From IMG/VR virus record IMGVR_UViG_3300008110_010375: 64,000 nt of DNA; one strand, written 5' to 3'. The translations under genes and the position numbers were made by a program. Under the pieces are notes generated by a model. That model was given only the letters and a program-made list of their open reading frames with translations, made no database searches and was not told the origin of the DNA. The stretch comes from a virus. This document shows, in pieces, positions 5,192 through 18,272 of the stretch. Position 1 is the first letter of the stretch. Each line of letters starts with the position of its first letter.

Positions 5192-5438
5192 GCGTCCTGG
5201 GTTCAGGATCAAAGACTACTTCATCAGCTTTCCGGAAGGTGAGTTTGTCCATGAAAACGACGACGGGACCATGTCATTAGATATTGACATTTTCCGTATC
5301 GATGGTAATAATAACCTTGTAGCCATGGATGAAGCCAGCAAAGACGCGGAGATCGAAGCCCTTCGGCCAGAGATCGAGGCGTGGGTAAACACAGCTCTAG
5401 AAGAAGCTATCAAGCGAGCCGAGGAAGAACATAAGTGA
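5172..5438 (+). CDS. Hypothetical protein
   Basis: ORF packed between neighbours with overlapping start/stop. Confidence 0.6.
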   Translation: MELDQHKRPGFRIKDYFISFPEGEFVHENDDGTMSLDIDIFRIDGNNNLVAMDEASKDAEIEALRPEIEAWVNTALEEAIKRAEEEHK

Positions 5439-5974
5439 ACATATTCTACATCAGTGAAGACCCGTTCGAAGCCGCCCAGATGATGGTCGACAAGCACGTG
5501 GTCAAGATGATCCTCGAGTCGGCGCAGCTTCTATCGACCGCGCACCGTCTCATCGACGGCGAGGAATTCGTCGGTCAGTCTCTCTCCGGTCGCAAAGCAA
5601 AGCGCTGGCGTCTTCCAGACTTTCGCGACGCGGTCTTATATCAAGCCACGCACATCAACCACCCGTCGGCGGTCTGGTGTCGCGAGTCCCGCGAGAACTA
5701 CAACTGGCTGTTCAGGCACTTCGCCGCGCTGATGGCCGAGTATACCCATCGCTACGGTAAGCACCACAAGTGCGAGGGTCAGCTCGCTGAGTACTTGATG
5801 CAGTCACCAAACAACATCGCCAAGGGCGGCTTGACCAAGATGCCTTCGGCCATGGCCGACGAGTACAAGATCAGCGACGACCCGTTGACAAACTACAGAA
5901 ACTATTATAAGATCGGTAAATCTAGAATGCATAGATGGACCAAACGCCAACCGCCGGAATGGATAGCAGCATGA
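5435..5974 (+). CDS. Pyrimidine-dimer DNA glycosylase (DenV-like) family protein
   Basis: MNIFY...DKHVVKMILESAQLLSTAH...HINHPSAVW...YRNYY pattern. Confidence 0.75.
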   Translation: MNIFYISEDPFEAAQMMVDKHVVKMILESAQLLSTAHRLIDGEEFVGQSLSGRKAKRWRLPDFRDAVLYQATHINHPSAVWCRESRENYNWLFRHFAALMAEYTHRYGKHHKCEGQLAEYLMQSPNNIAKGGLTKMPSAMADEYKISDDPLTNYRNYYKIGKSRMHRWTKRQPPEWIAA

Positions 5975-6372
5975 GCAAAGACTGGGTACACGACATCGCG
6001 ATGATGCATGAGCACTACAAAGTGCATCCCGTCATCGAGAACATGGATAAAGAAACCCTTGAGAAGTTTCTCAAGTTCCGCATCAACTTCCTCAAAGAAG
6101 AACTCGACGAGCTTCGCGACGCTGAGAACGCCGAAGACGTCGTCGACGCGCTCATCGACCTCTGCGTCGTGGCGATCGGTACGCTTGACACCTTCAAGGT
6201 GGACTCACACAAAGCTTGGGACGCGGTTCTGGAAGCCAACATGAACAAGAAGACCGGTGTCAAGGCGAGCCGCCCGAACCCGCTTGGACTTCCAGACCTG
6301 ATCAAGCCGGAAGGCTGGGAGCCCCCAAGCCATTCAAACAATTACGGTTTTTTAAGTAAAATCTTTGGTTGA
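5971..6372 (+). CDS. MazG-like / all-alpha NTP pyrophosphohydrolase
   Basis: LKEELDEL...DALIDL...VLEANMNK...DLIKPEGW. Confidence 0.8.
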   Translation: MSKDWVHDIAMMHEHYKVHPVIENMDKETLEKFLKFRINFLKEELDELRDAENAEDVVDALIDLCVVAIGTLDTFKVDSHKAWDAVLEANMNKKTGVKASRPNPLGLPDLIKPEGWEPPSHSNNYGFLSKIFG

Positions 6373-6397
6373 CATTTTAATCTACTCATTGTATACT
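6369..6397 (+). promoter_or_regulatory. Sigma70-type promoter
   Basis: TTGACA-17nt-TATACT upstream of the modification cluster. Confidence 0.75.
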
Positions 6398-6438
6398 ATA
6401 AAAGTATCCTGCGCTGAGCGCTTAATTCGGAGAAAAAT

Positions 6439-7023
6439 ATGAGTGACCTTGCTACCTACGCCGACAAGATTTTGTCGGCTGAACCTGTAAAAGTCCAAAG
6501 AACAGAAGAGCTAAATAAAAAGTTCACGGATATAGCGAATGAGATTTATCGCTGTCCTTTTCGCAATAAGAATCGTCGTGAATTTAAGACTGTGTTTGAG
6601 TCCGTCGAAAAGATGGTCATTGAACACGCACTATCAAAGCTCACTGGACTTGCGATGAACTGGCAATCTTTTGATCACACCAATCGTGATACATACGCTT
6701 GGGACGTGATTGATCTAGAAACTAAAAAAACTTTTGAGTGCAAGCGCTGGGCCGAGAAGTGGTTTTCATTCAACAATAAAGATATCTCAACGTTCACAAA
6801 AAACATCGACATCATCGACTACTTCGTGTCGGGCAAAGTGTTTCGCACGCCGTCTTTCTATACGGTGGCTTTTCACTTGGTAGCCGACGCGAAGTCGTTC
6901 GAGAAGTATGTTCGCCCATCACAGTACACAACAAAACTGTACTACGATCACCACACGGCTATGAAGAAAGGTGACGCTTTCTTTCGTGACCACGTCTATT
7001 TTGAGAATGGAACAGCAGCATGA
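6439..7023 (+). CDS. Hypothetical protein, possible PD-(D/E)xK nuclease
   Basis: GGAG RBS; WDVIDLETKKTFECK resembles a D...ExK active site. Confidence 0.45.
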   Translation: MSDLATYADKILSAEPVKVQRTEELNKKFTDIANEIYRCPFRNKNRREFKTVFESVEKMVIEHALSKLTGLAMNWQSFDHTNRDTYAWDVIDLETKKTFECKRWAEKWFSFNNKDISTFTKNIDIIDYFVSGKVFRTPSFYTVAFHLVADAKSFEKYVRPSQYTTKLYYDHHTAMKKGDAFFRDHVYFENGTAA

Positions 7024-7385
7024 CAGACAAAGAATCCGTGAAAGTGCTTCAAGAGTGCATCGACCTGCAGCTCAAGAAGTCTCAAGACTATCAGAACCCG
7101 AACTCAAACGTGGTTCAAGCCATGCACTACCGCCGCGGCATCGATACGATCCACGACACGCTTCAAGGCAAGCTCTATCGCGCCCAATCGCTTCTTGAGT
7201 CCGGCCGCGCCGACCAAGCGAACTTCGAGTCGCTTGAGGACACGTACAAAGATCTCATCAACTACGCTTCCTTCGCAGTGTCTTGGCTTCGCGGCAAGAT
7301 CGAAGGCCAAGATCCCGAGCGCGACATCTTCAACAAGAAGCGCGAGCAGTCAAAGTACTATTACGAGAAAGATCGCAACAAATGA
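7020..7385 (+). CDS. Nucleotide-modification-associated domain 1 (DUF1599-like) protein
   Basis: KKSQDY...KLYR...ESLEDTYKDLINYA pattern; adjacent to dCMP hydroxymethylase. Confidence 0.65.
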   Translation: MTDKESVKVLQECIDLQLKKSQDYQNPNSNVVQAMHYRRGIDTIHDTLQGKLYRAQSLLESGRADQANFESLEDTYKDLINYASFAVSWLRGKIEGQDPERDIFNKKREQSKYYYEKDRNK

Positions 7386-8029
7386 TGACGATCGACGAGA
7401 TACGACTTCGCTTCAAGTACGACTACGACCTCGAAGTCTTTGTGACCGATAAGTCAGGCGTCAGGATGCTCGAGATCATGAACGCCAGCTTCATCGCCGA
7501 TCGACCGACGATCTTCGGCACGATCAACGAAGACTACGTCAAGCGCGAGCTTGAGTGGTACGAGTCTATGTCGCGCAACGTCAACGATATTCCCGGCGGG
7601 CCTCCGGCGATCTGGCAGCAGGTCGCGAGCGAGAGCGGTGAGATCAACTCCAACTACGGTTGGTGCATCTGGTCGGACGCGAACTACGCACAGTACGACA
7701 ACGTAGTCGCCGAGCTTCAAAAGAACCCAGAGTCTCGACGCGCGACCATGATCTACACACGCCCAAGTATGTGGCTCGACTACAATCGCGACGGCATGAG
7801 CGACTTCATGTGCACCAACACCGTGCAGTATATGATCCGACACGATCGCCTGCACGCTCTCGTGTACATGCGTTCGAACGACGTCGTGTTCGGCTACAAG
7901 AACGATCGCGCTTGGCAGAAGCACGTGCTCGATCGCCTCTGCGATGAGCTCGGCTACGAGCCCGGAAACATCTACTGGAACGTCGCCTCGCTCCATGTGT
8001 ATGAGAGGCACATCGACCTTGTCCGGTAA
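7382..8029 (+). CDS. 42: dCMP hydroxymethylase (T4 gp42-like)
   Basis: SDFMCTNTVQY...MRSNDVVFGYKND closely matches T4 gp42, including the Asp that selects dCMP over dUMP. Confidence 0.9.
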   Translation: MMTIDEIRLRFKYDYDLEVFVTDKSGVRMLEIMNASFIADRPTIFGTINEDYVKRELEWYESMSRNVNDIPGGPPAIWQQVASESGEINSNYGWCIWSDANYAQYDNVVAELQKNPESRRATMIYTRPSMWLDYNRDGMSDFMCTNTVQYMIRHDRLHALVYMRSNDVVFGYKNDRAWQKHVLDRLCDELGYEPGNIYWNVASLHVYERHIDLVR

Positions 8030-8519
8030 GTGGATCGATAAGTACTTCAAGCTCGCTGAGCAGGTGTCGAGTTGGTCGAAAGACCCAAGCACCAAGGTCG
8101 GTGCGATCGCCGTCGGCGCGAAGGGTCAGATCCTGTCGCAGGGATACAACGGGTTCCCACGCGGGATCGAGGACAGTGAAGCTCGGCTGAGCGATCGCGG
8201 ACAGAAGTATAAGTTCGTGGTCCACGCCGAGCAGAACTGCATCTACAACGCGACGCTGAACGGGGTCAGCCTGTCAGACGCCGATATGTACATCTGGGGA
8301 CTTCCTCTCTGCTCGGAGTGCGCGAAGGGTGTCATCCAAGTGGGCGTCAAGCGCGTCTTCATGTGCTACCCTTCTGAGATCCCAAGTAAATGGAGCGACT
8401 CGTTCGAGCTGACGGCCGCTATGTTGAATGAAGCTAAAGTTGAGTGGAAGTGCTATGAATCGAGTCTTAGTAGTAGGTATGAACCCGTCGAACACTCCGG
8501 GAACGACGACGGGCGTTGA
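8019..8519 (+). CDS. cd: dCMP deaminase
   Basis: SKDPSTKVGA, GYNGFPRG, HAEQN and PLCSEC zinc motifs; TTG start inferred. Confidence 0.9.
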   Translation: MSGKWIDKYFKLAEQVSSWSKDPSTKVGAIAVGAKGQILSQGYNGFPRGIEDSEARLSDRGQKYKFVVHAEQNCIYNATLNGVSLSDADMYIWGLPLCSECAKGVIQVGVKRVFMCYPSEIPSKWSDSFELTAAMLNEAKVEWKCYESSLSSRYEPVEHSGNDDGR

Positions 8520-8832
8520 GCGCAAGAACTCAACGTTCGATCGCCTGCACAAGTGGTTCGATCACGCCGGCGTTCACTACTTCTCTTTCGTAAATACAAC
8601 CGACAAGCGCGGTGAGATCAAGCCGGTCGACATCGACTGGGATACACTCAAGCTGTGTCTCAAAGGTCACACCAAGATTATTGCACTCGGCGGCTTCGCC
8701 TCGACGGCGCTTGGCAGGCTAAATATAGAACACTACACTTTGCCGCACCCGTCACCTCGCAACAGGAAGTTCAACGACGCGGCCTATGAACCAATGGTCA
8801 TGGAAGACTTGAGAAGGTACGTTACAAAATGA
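8455..8832 (+). CDS. Uracil-DNA-glycosylase-superfamily small protein
   Basis: VLVVGMNPS (motif A-like), IIALG and LPHPSPRN (motif B-like). Confidence 0.65.
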   Translation: MNRVLVVGMNPSNTPGTTTGVERKNSTFDRLHKWFDHAGVHYFSFVNTTDKRGEIKPVDIDWDTLKLCLKGHTKIIALGGFASTALGRLNIEHYTLPHPSPRNRKFNDAAYEPMVMEDLRRYVTK

Positions 8833-10061
8833 AAGTTGCGATTCTCATGGGACGCGGCATCGAGGGATGCGGCGTCTCTAAGTTTACTATCGAGATGGCG
8901 AAGTACCTGCAGAAGCACGGTCACGAATACGTCGTCATCGCGGCCAAGGACAAGACTTGGTCGCGAAAGAACTCTCATGAGATGCCCAACCTCATGTACA
9001 TCAAGTTCGCCGAGGACGGCGCGGTCGATCACGTTGCCGACGCCTGCAACACCTGCGACTTGGTCGTCATCAACTCGCTGCCTCCGTTCGCCTACAAGAA
9101 GAACTTGAACTACGACGTCAAGGTCGCTGAGAACTTCCGCAAGATACTGCAGAAGATCCAAGCGCCTACGGTGTTGTTTCAACACGACCATAATAAGATC
9201 TCAATCACGCGCAACGACTGCCTTAAGGAATCTATCGAGAAGTCGAAGGCTCTGTTCGCCCACTCACCGACCGGCGACTTCGCGACGGTAGTCGAGTCGC
9301 TGTCTGAAGTCGGCGGGGTGTTAGGGTTCTTTGGCGCTGAGCCTGTGAAGCGTGAGATCTTAAACTTCCAGCCCGGGATGTATTTCGACGAGGTGCGCAA
9401 GAAGTACTGGAAACCCATCGAGCAGACGGACAAGATGTGTCACCGTTGGATCGGCCGCATGGCGCTGTGGAAGGGTCCGCGACTGATGTTCGACTTCCAT
9501 GAGAAGCACCTGCGCAAGATGAACGCGCTGACGATCCTCGAGGGCATGGAGAAGTCGCTGGCTTTCGTCGAGATCAAGCAGAAGTACTCATTCCAGTACT
9601 TCAACACCGAGAACCCCGACAACGTCGACTTTACTAAATACTACGGCGACACCGCGACAGTGTTCTCATTCTACAAGAACCATGAGCTGCTCGAGCGCCT
9701 CTCAAAGTCGGGATACGGGTACCAGCTCTCGCTTCTGGACTCAAGGTACATCAAGCGATCGATCGAGTACACACACTGCGAGGTCGCCGCCGCCGGAGCG
9801 ATTCCAGTCTTTCATCGCGGATACGGCGAAGCCTGCACGCATCGAGTCCTCGGCAAGCCCTTGACAGAATGCGCCGACAGTGGTACAATCTGGCTATCAA
9901 ACGACAACATGGAGCAGTGTGCTGATTTGATCGCGACGCTCAACACAGACGACGGCCTTCGCGACGAGTATCGCGAGAAGGCCTATGAGTTCTATAAATC
10001 ACACCAAGACGCAGACGCTGTCTTCGACGAAGCGTTCAAACTGATCGGAGAGGCGAAATGA
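8829..10061 (+). CDS. agt: DNA alpha-glucosyltransferase (T4 AGT-like)
   Basis: GRGIEGCGVSKF, QHDH, NFQP, RWIGR..WKG, RSIEYTH and REKAYEFY..HQD collinear with T4 AGT. Confidence 0.9.
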   Translation: MKVAILMGRGIEGCGVSKFTIEMAKYLQKHGHEYVVIAAKDKTWSRKNSHEMPNLMYIKFAEDGAVDHVADACNTCDLVVINSLPPFAYKKNLNYDVKVAENFRKILQKIQAPTVLFQHDHNKISITRNDCLKESIEKSKALFAHSPTGDFATVVESLSEVGGVLGFFGAEPVKREILNFQPGMYFDEVRKKYWKPIEQTDKMCHRWIGRMALWKGPRLMFDFHEKHLRKMNALTILEGMEKSLAFVEIKQKYSFQYFNTENPDNVDFTKYYGDTATVFSFYKNHELLERLSKSGYGYQLSLLDSRYIKRSIEYTHCEVAAAGAIPVFHRGYGEACTHRVLGKPLTECADSGTIWLSNDNMEQCADLIATLNTDDGLRDEYREKAYEFYKSHQDADAVFDEAFKLIGEAK

Positions 10062-11254
10062 AGCACGCAACAATCGTACCGCTCATAGGCGGTGAGACCC
10101 TAGGCTCTGAAAAAGCTTTCGGAAGCCGCCCAGTCTGGCTCGCTTCGTATGAAGCGTTTCAGGCAAACGACAGCCACCTGCTTAACTACTACAACAACGA
10201 GGTTCCGTATCACCTGATCGACAAGGGAAGCTTCCCAACCGAGAAGGTCGACGTCATCAGCACAGTGTGTCCATGCGCCGGCCTGTCGCAGCTGTCGCAC
10301 GGCTTCGGCGACCACAACCCGAACAACAAGTGGATGATCGAGACGGCGAAGTACGTGCTCGGCGAGCTTAAGCCCGAGGTGTTCTGGGGTGAGAACGCCC
10401 CAGGATTCGCAGGCAAGATCGGTGAGAACGTTCGCAACCAAGTGCGCCAGATCGGTCTCGACAACGGATACAGCATGACGGTCTACCGCACGCGCTCGCT
10501 CCTTCACGGGGTGGCGCAGGTGCGCGAGCGAGCTTTCTACTTCTTCTGGCGCGGCGACAAGGTTCCCGTGTTGAACTTCTACCAGCGCGAGCGTCCGACG
10601 ATTGAGGACACGATACTCAGCGTCACGTCTAACTTCCAGATGGATCCGATCAATCCAAAGACTCCGTCGAAGGACGATCCCTACTACCGCTTCATCCTTG
10701 AGCACATACACGGAGGCGTGAGTCATCGCGACTTCTGTAAGAACGTCGAGCCCGCCAAAGCGCGCGGACAGGACGTCTTATCATATATAGAACGCGTGGG
10801 CGTCGACTACGACGAGGTCGCCGAGTGGATGGGAGCCAACGGCTATCCCAAAGAAGTTGAGAAGTGCAAGGGTCGCAAGGCCAAGATTGCGGCCGGCGGA
10901 AACATCATGCGCCGCGGAACCATAGTCCCACGAGACTACATCGGCGCGTTCGTCGGTCACTACCCAATGATGCTGACGCATCCCGTCGAAGACCGCTACA
11001 TAACATACAGGGAAGCCATGACGATCATGGGACTCCCGCAAGACTTTGAGCTGCTCAACCCAAAGAAGAGCGCGAACCACATCTGTCAAAATGTACCAGT
11101 GAGCACCGCACATGACATGGCAACCGAAGTCCGTGAATATCTTGAAGGAAAGCGAGAACTCGTATCGTCTCGTCTCGCTTTCCAATACAACTTCTCTAGA
11201 ACAAATGAGTTTACTGATGAACGAACAACCTCTGCGCTCGATGCCTTCTTCTGA
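10058..11254 (+). CDS. C5-cytosine DNA methyltransferase-fold protein with atypical motif I
   Basis: CPCAGLS (motif IV), ENA (VI), QVRER (VIII), RYITYREAMTIMGLP (IX), QNVP (X). Confidence 0.8.
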   Translation: MKHATIVPLIGGETLGSEKAFGSRPVWLASYEAFQANDSHLLNYYNNEVPYHLIDKGSFPTEKVDVISTVCPCAGLSQLSHGFGDHNPNNKWMIETAKYVLGELKPEVFWGENAPGFAGKIGENVRNQVRQIGLDNGYSMTVYRTRSLLHGVAQVRERAFYFFWRGDKVPVLNFYQRERPTIEDTILSVTSNFQMDPINPKTPSKDDPYYRFILEHIHGGVSHRDFCKNVEPAKARGQDVLSYIERVGVDYDEVAEWMGANGYPKEVEKCKGRKAKIAAGGNIMRRGTIVPRDYIGAFVGHYPMMLTHPVEDRYITYREAMTIMGLPQDFELLNPKKSANHICQNVPVSTAHDMATEVREYLEGKRELVSSRLAFQYNFSRTNEFTDERTTSALDAFF

Positions 11255-11576
11255 GCTTAAGCACCTTGGGCTGGAAGATGTCGTGGTGAAAAAAAAGGAC
11301 TACAAGTACAACGAAGACCTGTACATTTCAGAAATCGCGGATTATATTGGTAAGACATACGGTGAGCACTACTCGCGGAACAAGTTCCAAGCGACTGAGT
11401 TCATCATAGATTCCGGTCACGGCACCGGCTTCTGCGTCGGCAACGTCCTAAAGTACGCGCAGCGCTATGGGCGCAAGGGCTCACCGGACGACTGGAGGAA
11501 AGACCTCATGAAGGTGATCCACTACGCGATCATCCAGCTTCACGTTCACGATACAACCTACGAGGACGACAAGTGA
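11241..11576 (+). CDS. DUF3310-like protein
   Basis: HY...GFCVGNVLKYAQRYGRK...DLMKVIHY; start uncertain. Confidence 0.65.
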   Translation: MPSSELKHLGLEDVVVKKKDYKYNEDLYISEIADYIGKTYGEHYSRNKFQATEFIIDSGHGTGFCVGNVLKYAQRYGRKGSPDDWRKDLMKVIHYAIIQLHVHDTTYEDDK

Positions 11577-11761
11577 ACAAGTTTCTACAATATGTAAAGC
11601 ATTCAAACATACACGTGTCGCTTAGCTTGAATCCGTTCAAGTGGCGCGTTATTATTGATTGTTCTAGACGCAGCGATATGGATCCTGGGCTGTTGCTAGA
11701 TTTTCTAATGATTTTAGGTCCACTAAAGATTGCAATGATCATCGATGACGGGAGTTGGTAA
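11573..11761 (+). CDS. Hypothetical protein
   Basis: Short ORF coupled to neighbours (GTGA overlap). Confidence 0.5.
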   Translation: MNKFLQYVKHSNIHVSLSLNPFKWRVIIDCSRRSDMDPGLLLDFLMILGPLKIAMIIDDGSW

Positions 11762-11763
11762 CG

Positions 11764-12630
11764 ATGGAAATCCAGATTAAAGTTGAAGAGCTGCAGAAGA
11801 AGAAACTCTTCGTGGCTACACCTATGTACGGCGGACAGTGTAACGGCATGTACGCCCGCTCGATGTGTGACCTCACTGCCATGTGCTTGAAGTACGGCAT
11901 CGAGATGCGCTCATACTTCTTGTTCAATGAGTCGCTCATCACTCGAGCCAGAAACTATTGTGTTGACGAATTCCTGCGCTCGGGTTATACTCACCTTATG
12001 TTCGTCGACTCGGACATCGGATTCAATCCCCAAGACGTGCTCGCTCTTCTCGCTCTCCAGACCGACGAGTCTCCATACGACATCATCGGCGGTGCGTACC
12101 CGAAGAAGTGCATCACTTGGGAAAAGATCAAGATGGCCGTCGATAAGGGAGTCGCGGATCAGAACCCAGCGCTTCTTGAAGACTTCGTCGGCGACTTCGT
12201 CTTCAACCCAGTGATGGAGAAGGGCGAAGCTTCCAAGTCGATCAAGCTCGACGAGCCGGCGGAAGTGCTTGAGATCGGTACTGGCTTCATGATGGTTCGC
12301 CGCGCGACCTTCGAGGAGTACGTCAAGAAGTACCCAAACATCATGTACAAGCCCGACCACGTCCGCACCGCTGAGTTCGACGGCACGCGCCGCATCGGCA
12401 TGTACTTCCAAGCCGAGGTCGACCCTGAGTCCGAGCGCTACTTGTCGGAAGACTACCTCTTCTGTCAGAACTCACGCAAGGCCGGAATGAAGGTTTGGCT
12501 CTGCCCATGGATGCACCTGCAGCACGCAGGCTTCTACACCTTCGGCGGCAAGCTCGCGGCTTTGGCATCTATCGGTGCCTCCGCGACGGCAGACCCCGCA
12601 CAGATCGCCGCAACAAAAGCAAAGAAGTGA
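11764..12630 (+). CDS. GT-A fold glycosyltransferase-like protein
   Basis: ATPMYGG, ESLITRARN, FVDSD (DxD), GTGFM and SEDY motifs. Confidence 0.7.
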   Translation: MEIQIKVEELQKKKLFVATPMYGGQCNGMYARSMCDLTAMCLKYGIEMRSYFLFNESLITRARNYCVDEFLRSGYTHLMFVDSDIGFNPQDVLALLALQTDESPYDIIGGAYPKKCITWEKIKMAVDKGVADQNPALLEDFVGDFVFNPVMEKGEASKSIKLDEPAEVLEIGTGFMMVRRATFEEYVKKYPNIMYKPDHVRTAEFDGTRRIGMYFQAEVDPESERYLSEDYLFCQNSRKAGMKVWLCPWMHLQHAGFYTFGGKLAALASIGASATADPAQIAATKAKK

Positions 12631-12646
12631 TTGGAGACTATACATT

Positions 12647-13309
12647 ATGAAGTTGAGTGACAACACCATCGCGATTCTCAAGAACTTCGCGACCATCAAC
12701 CCGTCGATCCTGGTCCGTCCAGGATCGACACTCTCCACCATCTCACCTCAGAAGTCGATCTTCGCGAAAGCTCCGGTCGAGGAGTCGTTTCCTCGCGAGT
12801 TCGCCATCTATGAGTTGAGCAAGTTCCTCGGCGTCCTCTCGCTCTTCAACGAGCCTGAGATCGAGTTTAAAGAAAAGTCGATGCTCATCAAGTCCGGCAA
12901 GCAGCAGATCAGCTACACATACGCCGAGCCGTCGATGATCGTCGGCGCGCCTGAGAAGGACATCACCTTCCCTGAGCCTGAGATCGACTTCAACATCACT
13001 CAGGAGGAGCTCCAGAAGGTCGTCCGCGCGACCGGCGTCCTCCAAGTTCCAGACGTCAGCATCCAAGGCAACAAGGAGAAGGTTCGCGTCTACGCCATGA
13101 ACGCGAAGAACCCGACCACCGACACCTTCAGCATCGACGTCGGCGAGACCGACAAGCACTTCGACATGATCTTCAAGGCCGAGAACATCATCAAGCTCGT
13201 TCCGGCGAACTACAACGTAAAGATCTCGTCGAAGGGTTTAGCCCTGTACACTTCCGATAAAATAAGTTACTATGTAGCTACTGAGTCCAACAGCAGCTAT
13301 CAGGGGTGA
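12647..13309 (+). CDS. 45: Sliding clamp gp45
   Basis: MKLSDNTIAILKNFATINPSI; upstream of clamp loader. Confidence 0.93.
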   Translation: MKLSDNTIAILKNFATINPSILVRPGSTLSTISPQKSIFAKAPVEESFPREFAIYELSKFLGVLSLFNEPEIEFKEKSMLIKSGKQQISYTYAEPSMIVGAPEKDITFPEPEIDFNITQEELQKVVRATGVLQVPDVSIQGNKEKVRVYAMNAKNPTTDTFSIDVGETDKHFDMIFKAENIIKLVPANYNVKISSKGLALYTSDKISYYVATESNSSYQG

Positions 13310-14247
13310 GCATGGAAGAGTTCCTTTGGGTCGAGAAGTATCGGCCAAAGACTATCGAAGAATGCGTCCTTCCCGACGAACTAAAGAGCACCTTTCAGAA
13401 GTTCGTGGAGAAGGGCGAGATCCCAAACCTACTTTTAACTGGCGGCGCCGGCGTCGGTAAGACCACGGTCGCTCGGGCCATGCTCGAGCAGATCGGCGCC
13501 GACTACATAGTGATCAACGGGAGTATGAATGGAAACATCGACACACTACGAAACGAGATCCTACAGTTTGCTTCCTCAGTTTCTTTTACTGGAAGCAGGA
13601 AATACGTCATCCTTGACGAAGCAGACTACCTCAACGCCAACTCAACCCAACCAGCTCTACGAAATTTCATGGAGGAATTCTCAAGGAACTGTGGGTTCAT
13701 ACTCACCTGTAACTTCAGAAACCGCATCATCGAGCCCCTACACTCTCGTTGTTCCGTTGTCGAGTTCAAAATTTCCAAAGCGGATCTTCCTCGACTTGCA
13801 GCTCAATTCTTCAAGCGCGTCCTTTCAATTCTCGATGGAAATGGCGTAAAGTATGATAAAGCTGTTGTTGCTGAGCTTATTCAGCGCCACCTGCCTGATT
13901 GGCGTCGCGTGCTTAATGAACTACAGAGATACTCCGTAAATGGAACCATCGACACTGGAATCTTTGCTAACCACGGCGCTTCTGCTTTTACTGATCTGGT
14001 CGACATTCTGAAGCAGAAGAAGTTCGGCGAGATGCGTAAGTGGGTGGGTGAGAACTCCGACATGGACTCGACCACGCTCTTCCGTAAGTTCTACGACACC
14101 GCCTACGAGAAGGTCAATCCCAAGTCCATCCCTGAGCTCGTCCTCATCATCGCCAAGTACCAGTACCAAGCGGCGTTCGTGGCCGACCATGAGATCAACA
14201 CGGCGGCCTTCCTCACCGAGGTCATGATGGCGACGGAGTTCACATGA
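13306..14247 (+). CDS. 44: Clamp loader large subunit gp44
   Basis: LWVEKYRP, GGAGVGKTT, DEAD, SRC motifs. Confidence 0.96.
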   Translation: MSMEEFLWVEKYRPKTIEECVLPDELKSTFQKFVEKGEIPNLLLTGGAGVGKTTVARAMLEQIGADYIVINGSMNGNIDTLRNEILQFASSVSFTGSRKYVILDEADYLNANSTQPALRNFMEEFSRNCGFILTCNFRNRIIEPLHSRCSVVEFKISKADLPRLAAQFFKRVLSILDGNGVKYDKAVVAELIQRHLPDWRRVLNELQRYSVNGTIDTGIFANHGASAFTDLVDILKQKKFGEMRKWVGENSDMDSTTLFRKFYDTAYEKVNPKSIPELVLIIAKYQYQAAFVADHEINTAAFLTEVMMATEFT

Positions 14248-14666
14248 GTCCATTCGACTTCGTCAACGCGATAAACACGACCAAGAAAGACCTGATCCGC
14301 GACTCGGAGAACCCCGAGCTCGCGGAGAAGTCGTACAACCCGTTCCTGATAAACAGGGCCCTGTCTTACTTCGTCGACACCCTGCTGTACGCGAATGAGA
14401 TGAACCTGCACAATACCGTCGAAAAACAGCTGCAAAACGATTATCTGATAAATAGTATCAGGAAAGGTAAGCGTTTCTCGAAGTGGGCGAAGGCCGTCGA
14501 GGAACCTGATGTTCAGTGCGTGCAGGAATTCTACAAGATAAGCTACAGACGGGCTCTAGATGTCTGCGGTGTCCTTACGAAAGAACAGATCGACCTTATA
14601 AAAGAAAAGTTAATAAAAGGTGGTACTGATGTTCAATCTAAGCCAGCTGGTCGAGGTTCGACTTAG
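14244..14666 (+). CDS. 62: Clamp loader small subunit gp62
   Basis: PFDFVNAIN, YNPFLINRALS, KRFSKW; synteny. Confidence 0.92.
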   Translation: MSPFDFVNAINTTKKDLIRDSENPELAEKSYNPFLINRALSYFVDTLLYANEMNLHNTVEKQLQNDYLINSIRKGKRFSKWAKAVEEPDVQCVQEFYKISYRRALDVCGVLTKEQIDLIKEKLIKGGTDVQSKPAGRGST

Positions 14667-15042
14667 ATCCCCAGAAGACTTCTTAAAAGTCAAGGAGACC
14701 CTCTCAAGGATCGGTCTCGCTTCCAAGAAAGACAACACCCTCTATCAGTCCTGCCACATCCTGCATAAGCAGGGTCGCTACTACATCGTGCACTTCAAGG
14801 AGCTGTTCATGCTCGACGGCAAGCCCGCCGACTTCTCAGAGTCGGACGTTGCCCGCAGGAACAGGATAGCGCTGCTGCTCGATGAGTGGTCGCTCGTCGA
14901 GATCGTTGATAAGTTCAAAGTTCAGGAGCCGGTGTCTCCCATCAATCAGATAAAGATAATCCCTCACAAGGAGAAGTCTCAATGGAACTTGGTGGCGAAG
15001 TACACGATCGGCGGTGGTCGAGCATCTGGACTGAAGGTTTGA
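14629..15042 (+). CDS. regA: Translational repressor RegA
   Basis: DFLKVKETLSRIG, LYQSCHILHKQGRYYIVHFKELF. Confidence 0.96.
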   Translation: MFNLSQLVEVRLRSPEDFLKVKETLSRIGLASKKDNTLYQSCHILHKQGRYYIVHFKELFMLDGKPADFSESDVARRNRIALLLDEWSLVEIVDKFKVQEPVSPINQIKIIPHKEKSQWNLVAKYTIGGGRASGLKV

Positions 15043-17206: not shown

Positions 17207-17394
17207 AGTACTACGTCCTCACCTTCCACGCGGTCAAAAACGATGGATCATACGGACCCATGTACGGCAATCCAATGATCTTTGTCACCCGCGAAGACGC
17301 GATCGAGTATGGTCGTCATCGAGTAGACTATTCAAGAACCGACTTCAAAGTAAATGAAACTATCGTCACCAAACACGTAGTAGGAACAAAATAA
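17203..17394 (+). CDS. Hypothetical protein
   Basis: GGAGG RBS, ATGA overlap. Confidence 0.55.
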   Translation: MKYYVLTFHAVKNDGSYGPMYGNPMIFVTREDAIEYGRHRVDYSRTDFKVNETIVTKHVVGTK

Positions 17395-18272
17395 TGGCAC
17401 ACTTAGTAGAAACGATGGCATACGCAGGCGAGACACCATGGCACGGCTTAGGCGTCCCAGTACACAACGACCTCACTCCGGCCCAGATGCTTGAGAAAGC
17501 TGGACTCGATTGGACCGTCGAGAAGGTTCCAACGTTCTGTGAGTTCAAGGACGAGCTCATCCCAACGGACGACTACGCTTTGGTTCGCTCAAGCGACAGC
17601 AAGGTGTTGACGACGGTCTCGGGCGACTGGGAACCAATTCAGAACCACGAAGCTTTCGAGTTCTTCAACGACTTCGTCATGGCCGGCGACATGGAGATGC
17701 ACACAGCGGGCTCACTCGACGGCGGTCGAAGCGTCTGGGCTCTCGCTAAGATCAAGGAGTCTTGTGTCGACATTAGGTTCACAGGCATTCGAGTGGTGTG
17801 CAACAACACGCTCACAGTCGCTCTTAACGGCACCACCGACATGATGGTACGCCTGAACCACCGCAACAAGTTCGACGCCGAGTCGGTCAAGCACACGATG
17901 GGAATGGCCAGCAAACGGATGGGCACCTACGTAGATGTGGCTAAGTACCTCACGACCAAGCGCATCACCGACGACACGGTTAAGAACTACTTCCGGACCG
18001 TTTTCCCATCGATGGTCAAGGACGACACCGACTACCTCGATCGCCCGCTCTCGCGTCCGGCGTCGATGGCGCTCGAGGTTCTCGAAACCCAACCGGGGGC
18101 CGAGTACGGTACCGGAAGTTGGTGGCAGGCGTTCAACGCGGTAACATATACCACTGACCACCTGCTCGGACACTCGGCAGACTCACGGCTTAAGTCGGCT
18201 TGGTACGGACAGAATCGCCAGCGCAAGATCAAGGCGCTTGAAACAGCAGTGGAATTCGCGGACGCGGCTTAA
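17394..18272 (+). CDS. DUF932 family phage/plasmid protein
   Basis: ETMAYAGETPWHGLG, AGLDWTV, IQN, TAGSL, IRVVCNNTL, NAVT. Confidence 0.85.
   Translation: MAHLVETMAYAGETPWHGLGVPVHNDLTPAQMLEKAGLDWTVEKVPTFCEFKDELIPTDDYALVRSSDSKVLTTVSGDWEPIQNHEAFEFFNDFVMAGDMEMHTAGSLDGGRSVWALAKIKESCVDIRFTGIRVVCNNTLTVALNGTTDMMVRLNHRNKFDAESVKHTMGMASKRMGTYVDVAKYLTTKRITDDTVKNYFRTVFPSMVKDDTDYLDRPLSRPASMALEVLETQPGAEYGTGSWWQAFNAVTYTTDHLLGHSADSRLKSAWYGQNRQRKIKALETAVEFADAA

Follow-up and report, generated by a model that had tools for sequence, protein, structure and literature searches.

What would an enzyme with the fold of a cytosine C5-methyltransferase (C5-MTase) do in a phage whose cytosines should already carry a substituent at C5? 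The question is raised by a stretch of viral DNA of 64,000 nucleotides (IMG/VR record IMGVR_UViG_3300008110_010375; the whole stretch is termed the window), in which a gene for a C5-MTase-like protein, here termed MT, directly follows a gene for a DNA alpha-glucosyltransferase (AGT). Judged by sequence, predicted structure and gene context, MT might be a post-replicative enzyme that acts on 5-hydroxymethylcytosine (hmC) in phage DNA without a classical S-adenosylmethionine (SAM) site, a reading that we adopt tentatively. The wider proposal is rather doubtful: that the family of MT would be the first natural class to use the covalent mechanism of C5-MTases without SAM, converting hmC (or its glycoside) in DNA to a further hypermodified base. 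The gene and its conserved motifs are listed below; counts out of 130 refer to the window MT together with representatives of clusters at 50% identity, which are 28-61% identical to the window protein.

10058-11254, plus strand: MT, a C5-methyltransferase-fold gene (398 amino acids, aa) of the 'PLIGG/QNVP' phage family, identified by PF00145, an AlphaFold2 (AF2) model and fold matches
10076-10093, plus strand: motif I, V7-P8-L9-I10-G11-G12 (within A4-T-I-V-P-L-I-G-G-E13), canonical F-x-G-x-G-G, placed by structural alignment and by mafft with the phage enzyme CmoX
10271-10279, plus strand: motif IV, P72-C73-A74 (STVCPCAGLS), the catalytic Cys (C73 in 129/130) followed by Ala where Gln is usual
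10391-10399, plus strand: motif VI, E112-N113-A114 (WGENAPGF), canonical ENV; E in 130/130, N in 128/130
10517-10531, plus strand: motif VIII, Q154-V-R156-E-R158; Q in 128/130, both Arg in 130/130
10568-10957, plus strand: variable target-recognition region, residues 171-300, between motifs VIII and IX, of low residue conservation
11084-11098, plus strand: motif X, C343-Q344-N345-V346-P347, canonical G-N-x-V-P, placed by HMMER alignment to HaeIII

MT is the sole long open reading frame (ORF) at its position. It matches Pfam PF00145 with 69.5 bits (cut-off 22; E 4.3e-19) over residues 10-357, and its AF2 model, built with 79 homologues, has a mean predicted local distance difference test score (pLDDT) of 94.4. 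The model matches M.HaeIII (1DCT) with a Z score of 25.7 and a root-mean-square deviation (rmsd) of 2.9 Å over 275 aligned residues, and M.HhaI with a Z score of 25.5; the superposition on the two enzymes spans residues 1 to approximately 365 at 2.9-3.0 Å. A first-pass annotation of this DNA had described the catalytic PC, ENA and QxRxR motifs as intact, and they are indeed present as P72-C73, E112-N113-A114 and Q154-x-R156-x-R158. With a PF00145 match above the gathering score, the two-domain C5-MTase fold, the Pro-Cys nucleophile and the motif VI and VIII residues, MT belongs to the C5-MTase superfamily. The target-recognition region is far more variable than the remainder of the protein, with a mean top-residue frequency of 0.27-0.32 versus 0.47-0.58 for the N-terminal subdomain, for the catalytic core and for the region of motifs IX-X, and it can be aligned in part to the same region of CmoX.

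The cofactor site is where MT departs from its relatives. Motif I had been read as VPLIGGE in place of FxGxGG; this holds for residues 7-13, in a register fixed by structure, and extends across the family. In the structural alignments residue 1 of the model corresponds to residue 12 of M.HhaI, residue 1 of M.HaeIII and residue 19 of CmoX, so that V7 falls on the motif I Phe (F18 in HhaI, F7 in HaeIII, F25 in CmoX) and L9 on the leading Gly of FxGxGG; aligning MT with CmoX of phage S-B43 by mafft leads to the same register. Position 7 is I or V and is Phe in no representative, while P8 (126/130), L9 (126/130), G11 (128/130) and G12 (126/130) are near-invariant; since this constancy is kept between sequences only 28-61% identical, the deviation is not due to chance. 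A mis-called start hiding a canonical motif I upstream was considered and rejected: the ORF has no upstream extension and the homologues start at the same place.

The deviations go beyond motif I. In CmoX, the cofactor is contacted at the adenine by F25, F48 and D69 and at the ribose by E47 (PMC12783734). No conserved counterpart of the ribose-binding motif II Glu was found at positions 29-35 in the 130 sequences, whichever of the three plausible registers (S30, Y31 or 32/33) was taken; D or E occurs at position 32 in 31/130 and at position 33 in 18/130. The equivalent of the second aromatic adenine contact is F34, and the motif III Asp that contacts adenine is mostly retained (D55, 91/130). 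In motif X, Q344 (128/130) and N345 (125/130) are strongly conserved and position 343 is C, A, T or S, so that the G303-N304 pair of HhaI is not matched; Q344 aligns by mafft with R350 of CmoX, the equivalent of HhaI N304. Close to C5 of the flipped base, two residues are likewise reduced in size: canonical PCQ becomes PCA (A74 in 108/130, Gln in none) and canonical ENV becomes ENA (A114 in 124/130, Val in none). The missing motif II acid, the Q344-N345 pair in place of the motif X G-N and the A74 substitution are additions to what had been noticed at first.

P8, L9, G11, G12, S30, F34, N37, D/E38, Q344 and N345 are each kept in at least 117/130 sequences, so the pocket is rebuilt and not decayed, with a ligand of some kind presumably still bound in it. 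Profile comparisons show how far the N-terminal part has diverged. A family profile aligns by HMMER to solved methyltransferases only from approximately position 52-62 on, which means that motifs I-III are not recognizably canonical, and family members score 55-74 bits against PF00145, often starting at profile position 47-60. As hhalign of the family against Escherichia coli Dcm aligned the catalytic core alone, the register of motifs I-III rests on the mafft alignment with CmoX, the starts of the structural alignments and the AF2 secondary structure.

Why the expected substrate is a substituted cytosine becomes clear from the genes around MT.

5935-6372, plus strand: MazG/PRA-PH-like NTP pyrophosphatase, probable dCTPase (PF01503, E 9.4e-7)
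7020-7385, plus strand: DUF1599 (nucleotide modification associated domain 1) protein (PF07659, 24 bits, just under the cut-off of 25; phrog_1485; syntenic in related loci)
7382-8029, plus strand: dCMP hydroxymethylase of the T4 gp42 type (E 3e-89 to T4 gp42, 1B5E/1B49)
8001-8519, plus strand: dCMP deaminase, start approximate (PF00383, E 9.1e-14; phrog_174)
8428-8832, plus strand: small UDG-superfamily-like protein, 134 aa (weak PF03167 match, E 0.0046, below cut-off)
8829-10061, plus strand: DNA alpha-glucosyltransferase (agt), its stop overlapping the MT start (Pfam AGT, 254 bits; phrog_2888, E 1.9e-103)
11283-11576, plus strand: DUF3310 protein with a GTG start, start approximate (PF11753, E 3.1e-9), which follows MT in many T4-like loci

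The dCTPase role of the first of these genes is based on T4 gp56, which we take to be a member of the MazG-like superfamily. The AGT is a real one, covering 1-353 of 355 profile positions with approximately 42% identity to the agt of T4-like phages. The hydroxymethylase is a thymidylate-synthase homologue (RSND...GYKND) with Asp at the position of ThyA N177 and with D169 retained. Since D169N marks 5-hydroxy-dCMP synthases (PMC13326640), the retained D169 sets this enzyme apart from them. The window phage would thus possess the T4 recipe for hmC DNA, and because it encodes a T4-type dCMP hydroxymethylase, a MazG-like pyrophosphatase and a genuine AGT, the C5 of its cytosines should be occupied, as the first-pass annotation had presumed. 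A dioxygenase was not seen among the scanned cassette genes of the window and related loci, and a search for TET/JBP dioxygenase (PF12851) gave no match in G001 and G004-G007, although the control genomes gave none either.

The same genes accompany MT elsewhere. In 80 IMG/VR loci found with MT, the order MazG, DUF1599, gp42, deaminase, UDG-like protein, a variable slot, MT, DUF3310, GT-A-like protein, gp45 and gp44 is kept. Identity in these loci is 61-70% in most for MT, 58-67% for gp44 and 38-48% for gp45; MT is about as conserved as the clamp loader gp44, and in the more distant loci gp42 (approximately 44-53%) and AGT (44-46%) both fall below it. Among loci with at least 8 kb of flank, 80/106 hold a thymidylate-synthase homologue, and the residue at the N177 position is Asp in 80/80. 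For the 26/106 loci in which such a homologue was absent, three whole-contig searches each found an Asp-type synthase elsewhere on the contig. The exception is L092, where a canonical N177 synthase lies 5 kb from a truncated MT family gene. The link to a dCMP-specific synthase is also found in unrelated backbones, namely S-TIM54 and its relatives, XG4 and loci L188, L196, L181 and L147, as well as on contigs G005, G008 and G009, and it holds for L129 and L188 on a 293-kb phage contig with terminal repeats. A separate observation concerns L206 (contig G009, 24563-25270), a thymidylate-synthase homologue with four in-frame TGA codons, which may represent a recoded stop codon.

The slot before MT is filled differently from phage to phage, MT standing last in these sugar cassettes of changing content. 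AGT occupies the slot in only a part of the loci; the others have T4 beta-GT-like, GT1/GT4 and TAGT-like transferases, NAD epimerases, UDP-glucose dehydrogenases, UDP-galactopyranose mutase, inositol-1-phosphate synthase-like proteins, 5-hydroxymethyldeoxyuridine (5-hmdU)-DNA-kinase-like proteins or HNH. The MT start shares ATGA (10058-10061) with the agt stop, downstream of GGAGAGG, and this overlap had been taken as a sign that MT is coupled to AGT. The overlap itself is present, whereas the conclusion drawn from it does not stand: 55/105 MT family genes overlap their upstream gene by 4 nucleotides, and the upstream gene is AGT-like in only 25/105, the 105 upstream genes forming 17 sequence clusters.

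Some further observations were made on these loci. At L188:1947-8932, on the 293-kb contig (L129/L137) and at L056:3047-6398, genes for myo-inositol-1-phosphate synthase-like, FkbM methyltransferase and HMUDK_hel (5-hmdU-DNA-kinase-like) proteins lie directly upstream of MT in surroundings that include a dCMP hydroxymethylase, and these gene sets hint at a phosphorylated or inositol-type hypermodification of hmC. At L128:2470-3372 (minus strand) a homologue of TAGT (TET-associated glycosyltransferase, PF20691) lies in a thymidylate-synthase (pre-replicative) hmC cassette and not beside a TET gene. The UDG-like protein at 8428-8832 is conserved in many related phages, its gene following that of the dCMP deaminase and preceding the sugar slot.

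The family is large and was seen solely on phage or phage-like contigs, in both the ESM Atlas and prokaryotic genomes. A word-indexed search returned at least 2,352 clusters at 90% identity with E below 1e-5, and an exhaustive search 808 clusters at 50% identity, of which 241 were below 1e-30; in the ESM Atlas the clusters are 100% viral. A family-specific DNA pattern (MGLP...QNVP), for which 113 of the 118 loci found held a family member, occurs in 596 Gb of prokaryotic genomes at seven places, all on contigs of metagenome-assembled genomes; four have T4-like phage neighbours and three show the gene alone. A collection of cultured phages gave only eight matching records; these come from S-TIM5-group cyanophages, from Pseudoalteromonas phage XG4 and, as a more distant match, from Bacillus phage G, with no enterobacterial T-even phage among the eight. 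S-TIM54 and XG4 bear the family signature (PLVGG or PLIGG, ENAP, QNVP). At L174:1690-4106 (minus strand), on an IMG/VR contig of 142,917 bases, two tandem MT paralogues of 398 and 406 aa adjoin a Glyco_trans_1_2 protein, an AGT-like protein and a fused sugar-phosphate nucleotidyltransferase/APH-kinase protein; a dCMP-type synthase is encoded elsewhere on the contig.

How could such a protein act on DNA whose cytosines are already substituted? We propose that MT would be a catalytically competent C5-MTase derivative, part of a cytosine-replacement cassette and working on the phage's own DNA after replication, with hmC or its glycoside as the target base and not cytosine. A sequence-defined hmC would be flipped from the helix and attacked at C6 by C73. 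The enamine so formed could then activate the 5-CH2-OX group, as C5-MTases are known to do in their SAM-free side reactions, and the substituent would thereby be exchanged, lengthened or taken off. What was once the SAM site would have become a polar pocket (S30, aromatic 31, F34, N37, D/E38, Q344 and N345) that accepts the incoming group or the 5-substituent in place of SAM, and A74 and A114 would give room for the substituted C5. The chemical premise, which the first-pass annotation had also invoked, has support in the literature: in vitro, with no SAM present, C5-MTases couple hmC to thiols or remove the 5-substituent (PMC8829811), reactions credited there to Liutkeviciute et al. 2009 and 2011.

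An enzyme acting on hmC appears the best fit because the Cys chemistry is kept, the pocket is non-canonical and conserved, extra room is provided at C5, the context is one in which C5 should be occupied and a SAM-free precedent exists in vitro. The original annotation had left two options, partial replacement of cytosine by hmC or repurposing of the enzyme for hmC. Its premises stood, the argument from the ATGA overlap excepted, and the new evidence leans towards repurposing, since the odd motifs are family-wide, the pocket is remodelled at several positions, the C5-adjacent residues are smaller and the association is with dCMP-specific synthases.

Several points weigh on the other side. Each pocket change alone is compatible with altered SAM binding: an aliphatic residue can pack on adenine, D55 is largely kept and Gln retains the amide of Asn. 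The pocket stays constant while the neighbouring sugar enzymes vary, which disfavours recognition of the sugar itself. Ordinary anti-restriction methyltransferases, too, show a recognition region of variable sequence along with tandem paralogues such as those of L174. Lastly, we infer the full replacement of C by hmC in the window phage from its gene content.

The alternative that survives best, although we consider it somewhat unlikely, is a SAM-dependent C5-methyltransferase with a divergent SAM site that methylates cytosines escaping hmC replacement, either under partial substitution or as a mop-up activity; methylation would shield such sites from host restriction or from the phage's own cytosine-specific nucleases. 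The residues for C5 methyl-transfer chemistry are intact and G11-G12 and D55 have been retained, the variability of the recognition region and the occurrence of tandem paralogues recall multispecific phage methylases, and co-occurrence with the hmC pathway is expected if mop-up is useful only in such phages. Against this, Leu replaces the first motif I Gly, motif I lacks its aromatic residue and motif II its acid, Gln stands for the motif X Asn in 128/130 sequences, and motifs I-III could not be aligned by HMMER to any solved methyltransferase. Moreover, T4 is known to do without such an enzyme, and conservation at the level of a clamp loader is not expected of an accessory methylase.

A second alternative, which we judge improbable, is the transfer of a group other than methyl onto unmodified cytosine, either from a SAM analogue (as CmoX uses carboxy-SAM) or from methylene-tetrahydrofolate or formaldehyde, making hmC on DNA as a back-up for gp42. 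The selector position (N304 in HhaI, R350 in CmoX) is a near-invariant Gln, small residues lie near the transferred group, and the recognition region aligns in part with that of CmoX. Steric engineering of M.HhaI and M.SssI at these positions admits larger groups. Engineered C5-MTases of this kind exist (PMC8829811). On the other hand, no gene for donor synthesis (e.g. cmoA) stays adjacent across contexts, the neighbours being sugar enzymes, kinases and nucleotide enzymes; the SPPC plus Arg signature of CmoX is absent, MT having VCPC and Q344 where S-B43 CmoX has SPPC and GRMVP; and unmodified cytosine should be scarce.

Still more improbable is that MT modifies, during infection, a substrate other than phage DNA, whether host DNA or RNA (the latter as in Dnmt2-like tRNA methylation). 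No cytosine-containing DNA other than that of the host is abundant in the infected cell, and Dnmt2 structures also match the MT fold (Z 19.6-21.1), but DNA methylases fit better (Z of approximately 25), a recognition region so large and variable is what DNA enzymes typically have, and both the embedding in an hmC/sugar cassette and the altered pocket would be left unexplained. That MT is a non-catalytic hmC-DNA-binding or base-flipping protein retaining the fold would suit a non-canonical cofactor site, but is very improbable given that few or none of the 130 divergent sequences deviate at C73, E112, R156 or R158 and that the rebuilt pocket is strongly conserved.

The choice between action on hmC and methylation of residual cytosine has wider consequences. 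In the natural C5-MTase reactions that are known, the transferred group comes from a sulfonium cofactor of the SAM type (SAM itself or, in CmoX, carboxy-SAM), and we know of no natural enzyme dedicated to SAM-free C5-MTase chemistry on hmC. If the SAM-free reading is true, T4-like and other large phages of the environment would widely carry a new cytosine modification, and the new hmC chemistry would yield a new DNA base together with an enzymatic tool for hmC mapping, which already employs engineered methylases for such reactions. If instead cytosine replacement is only partial in many environmental phages, which then require methylation as a second layer of protection, phage DNA modification would have to be read differently from sequence. 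The question is directly testable because cultured carriers exist in the S-TIM5-group cyanophages and Pseudoalteromonas phage XG4. No published characterization of the MT family was found, although Iyer et al. 2013 (Nucleic Acids Research, NAR), reportedly a survey of such gene neighbourhoods, may mention the association; the literature found on cytosine hypermodification in phages deals with TET-linked methylases, CmoX, an hmC carbamoyltransferase and 5-hydroxycytosine glycosides, with methyltransferases near glycosyltransferases mentioned in one paper, and only in passing.

The remainder of the window places MT in its phage. The window is part of a T4-like phage genome, with gp47/gp46-type recombination nuclease genes, a peptide deformylase and a DenV-like glycosylase. 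ORFs at 12575-15042 read as the sliding clamp, clamp loader subunits and RegA, and the product of 13306-14247 matches annotated clamp-loader genes in phage records. Downstream of the replication genes, a DUF932 protein (17394-18272; PF06067, E 2.2e-31) is encoded. A close cultured relative was not found, megablast of the first 25 kb returning a single 80-base match; judged by the clamp loader (64%), the nearest cultured phage is Stenotrophomonas phage DLP6. In DLP6, peptide deformylase is followed by two small hypothetical genes, then by the GT-A-like gene and gp45. The window block at 5192-11754 (between the peptide deformylase and the GT-A-like gene) is missing at that position, and DLP6 is not among the MT-matching records. 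Because DLP6 is without the whole block, MT included, this region of approximately 6 kb looks like one insertable cassette. The block is followed by this gene.

11755-12630: GT-A-like protein with a DSD motif, upstream of gp45 (phrog_1574)

The DLP6 homologue of this protein is 70% identical, others occur in Sinorhizobium, Caulobacter and Pelagibacter T4-like phages, and one is labelled 'dpG-synthase-like protein' in a metagenomic record. The gene was considered as a member of the cassette and rejected, as it adjoins gp45 in DLP6 and in the Sinorhizobium, Caulobacter and Pelagibacter phages, none of which matches MT.

Set beside known systems, MT shows both similarities and differences. With M.HhaI and M.HaeIII it shares the fold over residues 1-365, the PC Cys, the motif VI Glu-Asn, QxRxR, the placement of motifs IX and X and a variable region between motifs VIII and IX, whereas its family has (I/V)PL(I/V)GG, no motif II acid, xQNVP, PCA and ENA. 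In contrast to bacterial and other phage C5-MTases, the family was seen only in phages and with dCMP-specific synthase homologues, and its expected substrate base is already substituted at C5. The T4 hmC pathway, comprising gp42, gp56 and alpha- and beta-glucosyltransferases, is paralleled in the window by the gp42 homologue, the MazG-like pyrophosphatase, dCMP deaminase and AGT; to our knowledge, neither T4 nor its cultured hmC relatives carry a C5-MTase-fold gene. CmoX of Synechococcus phage S-B43 (PDB 8YF3) is likewise a phage C5-MTase derivative and resembles MT in its fold (Z 23.5) and in part of its recognition region. Its choice of cofactor depends on the residue equivalent to HhaI N304; this residue, R350, binds the carboxymethyl group of carboxy-SAM (PMC12783734). 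However, CmoX keeps F25, E47, F48 and D69 together with its Arg selector, where the MT family has V/I, Leu, no acid and a Gln selector; it scores 180 bits over the whole PF00145 profile compared with 55-74 bits, and it sits with CmoA and a ligase, whereas the MT family sits with gp42-type enzymes and sugar cassettes. The SAM-free side reactions of C5-MTases share with the reaction proposed for MT the chemical logic by which a Cys-C6 adduct would act on a 5-hydroxymethyl group, and differ from it in that normal or engineered methylases show them as side activities in vitro.

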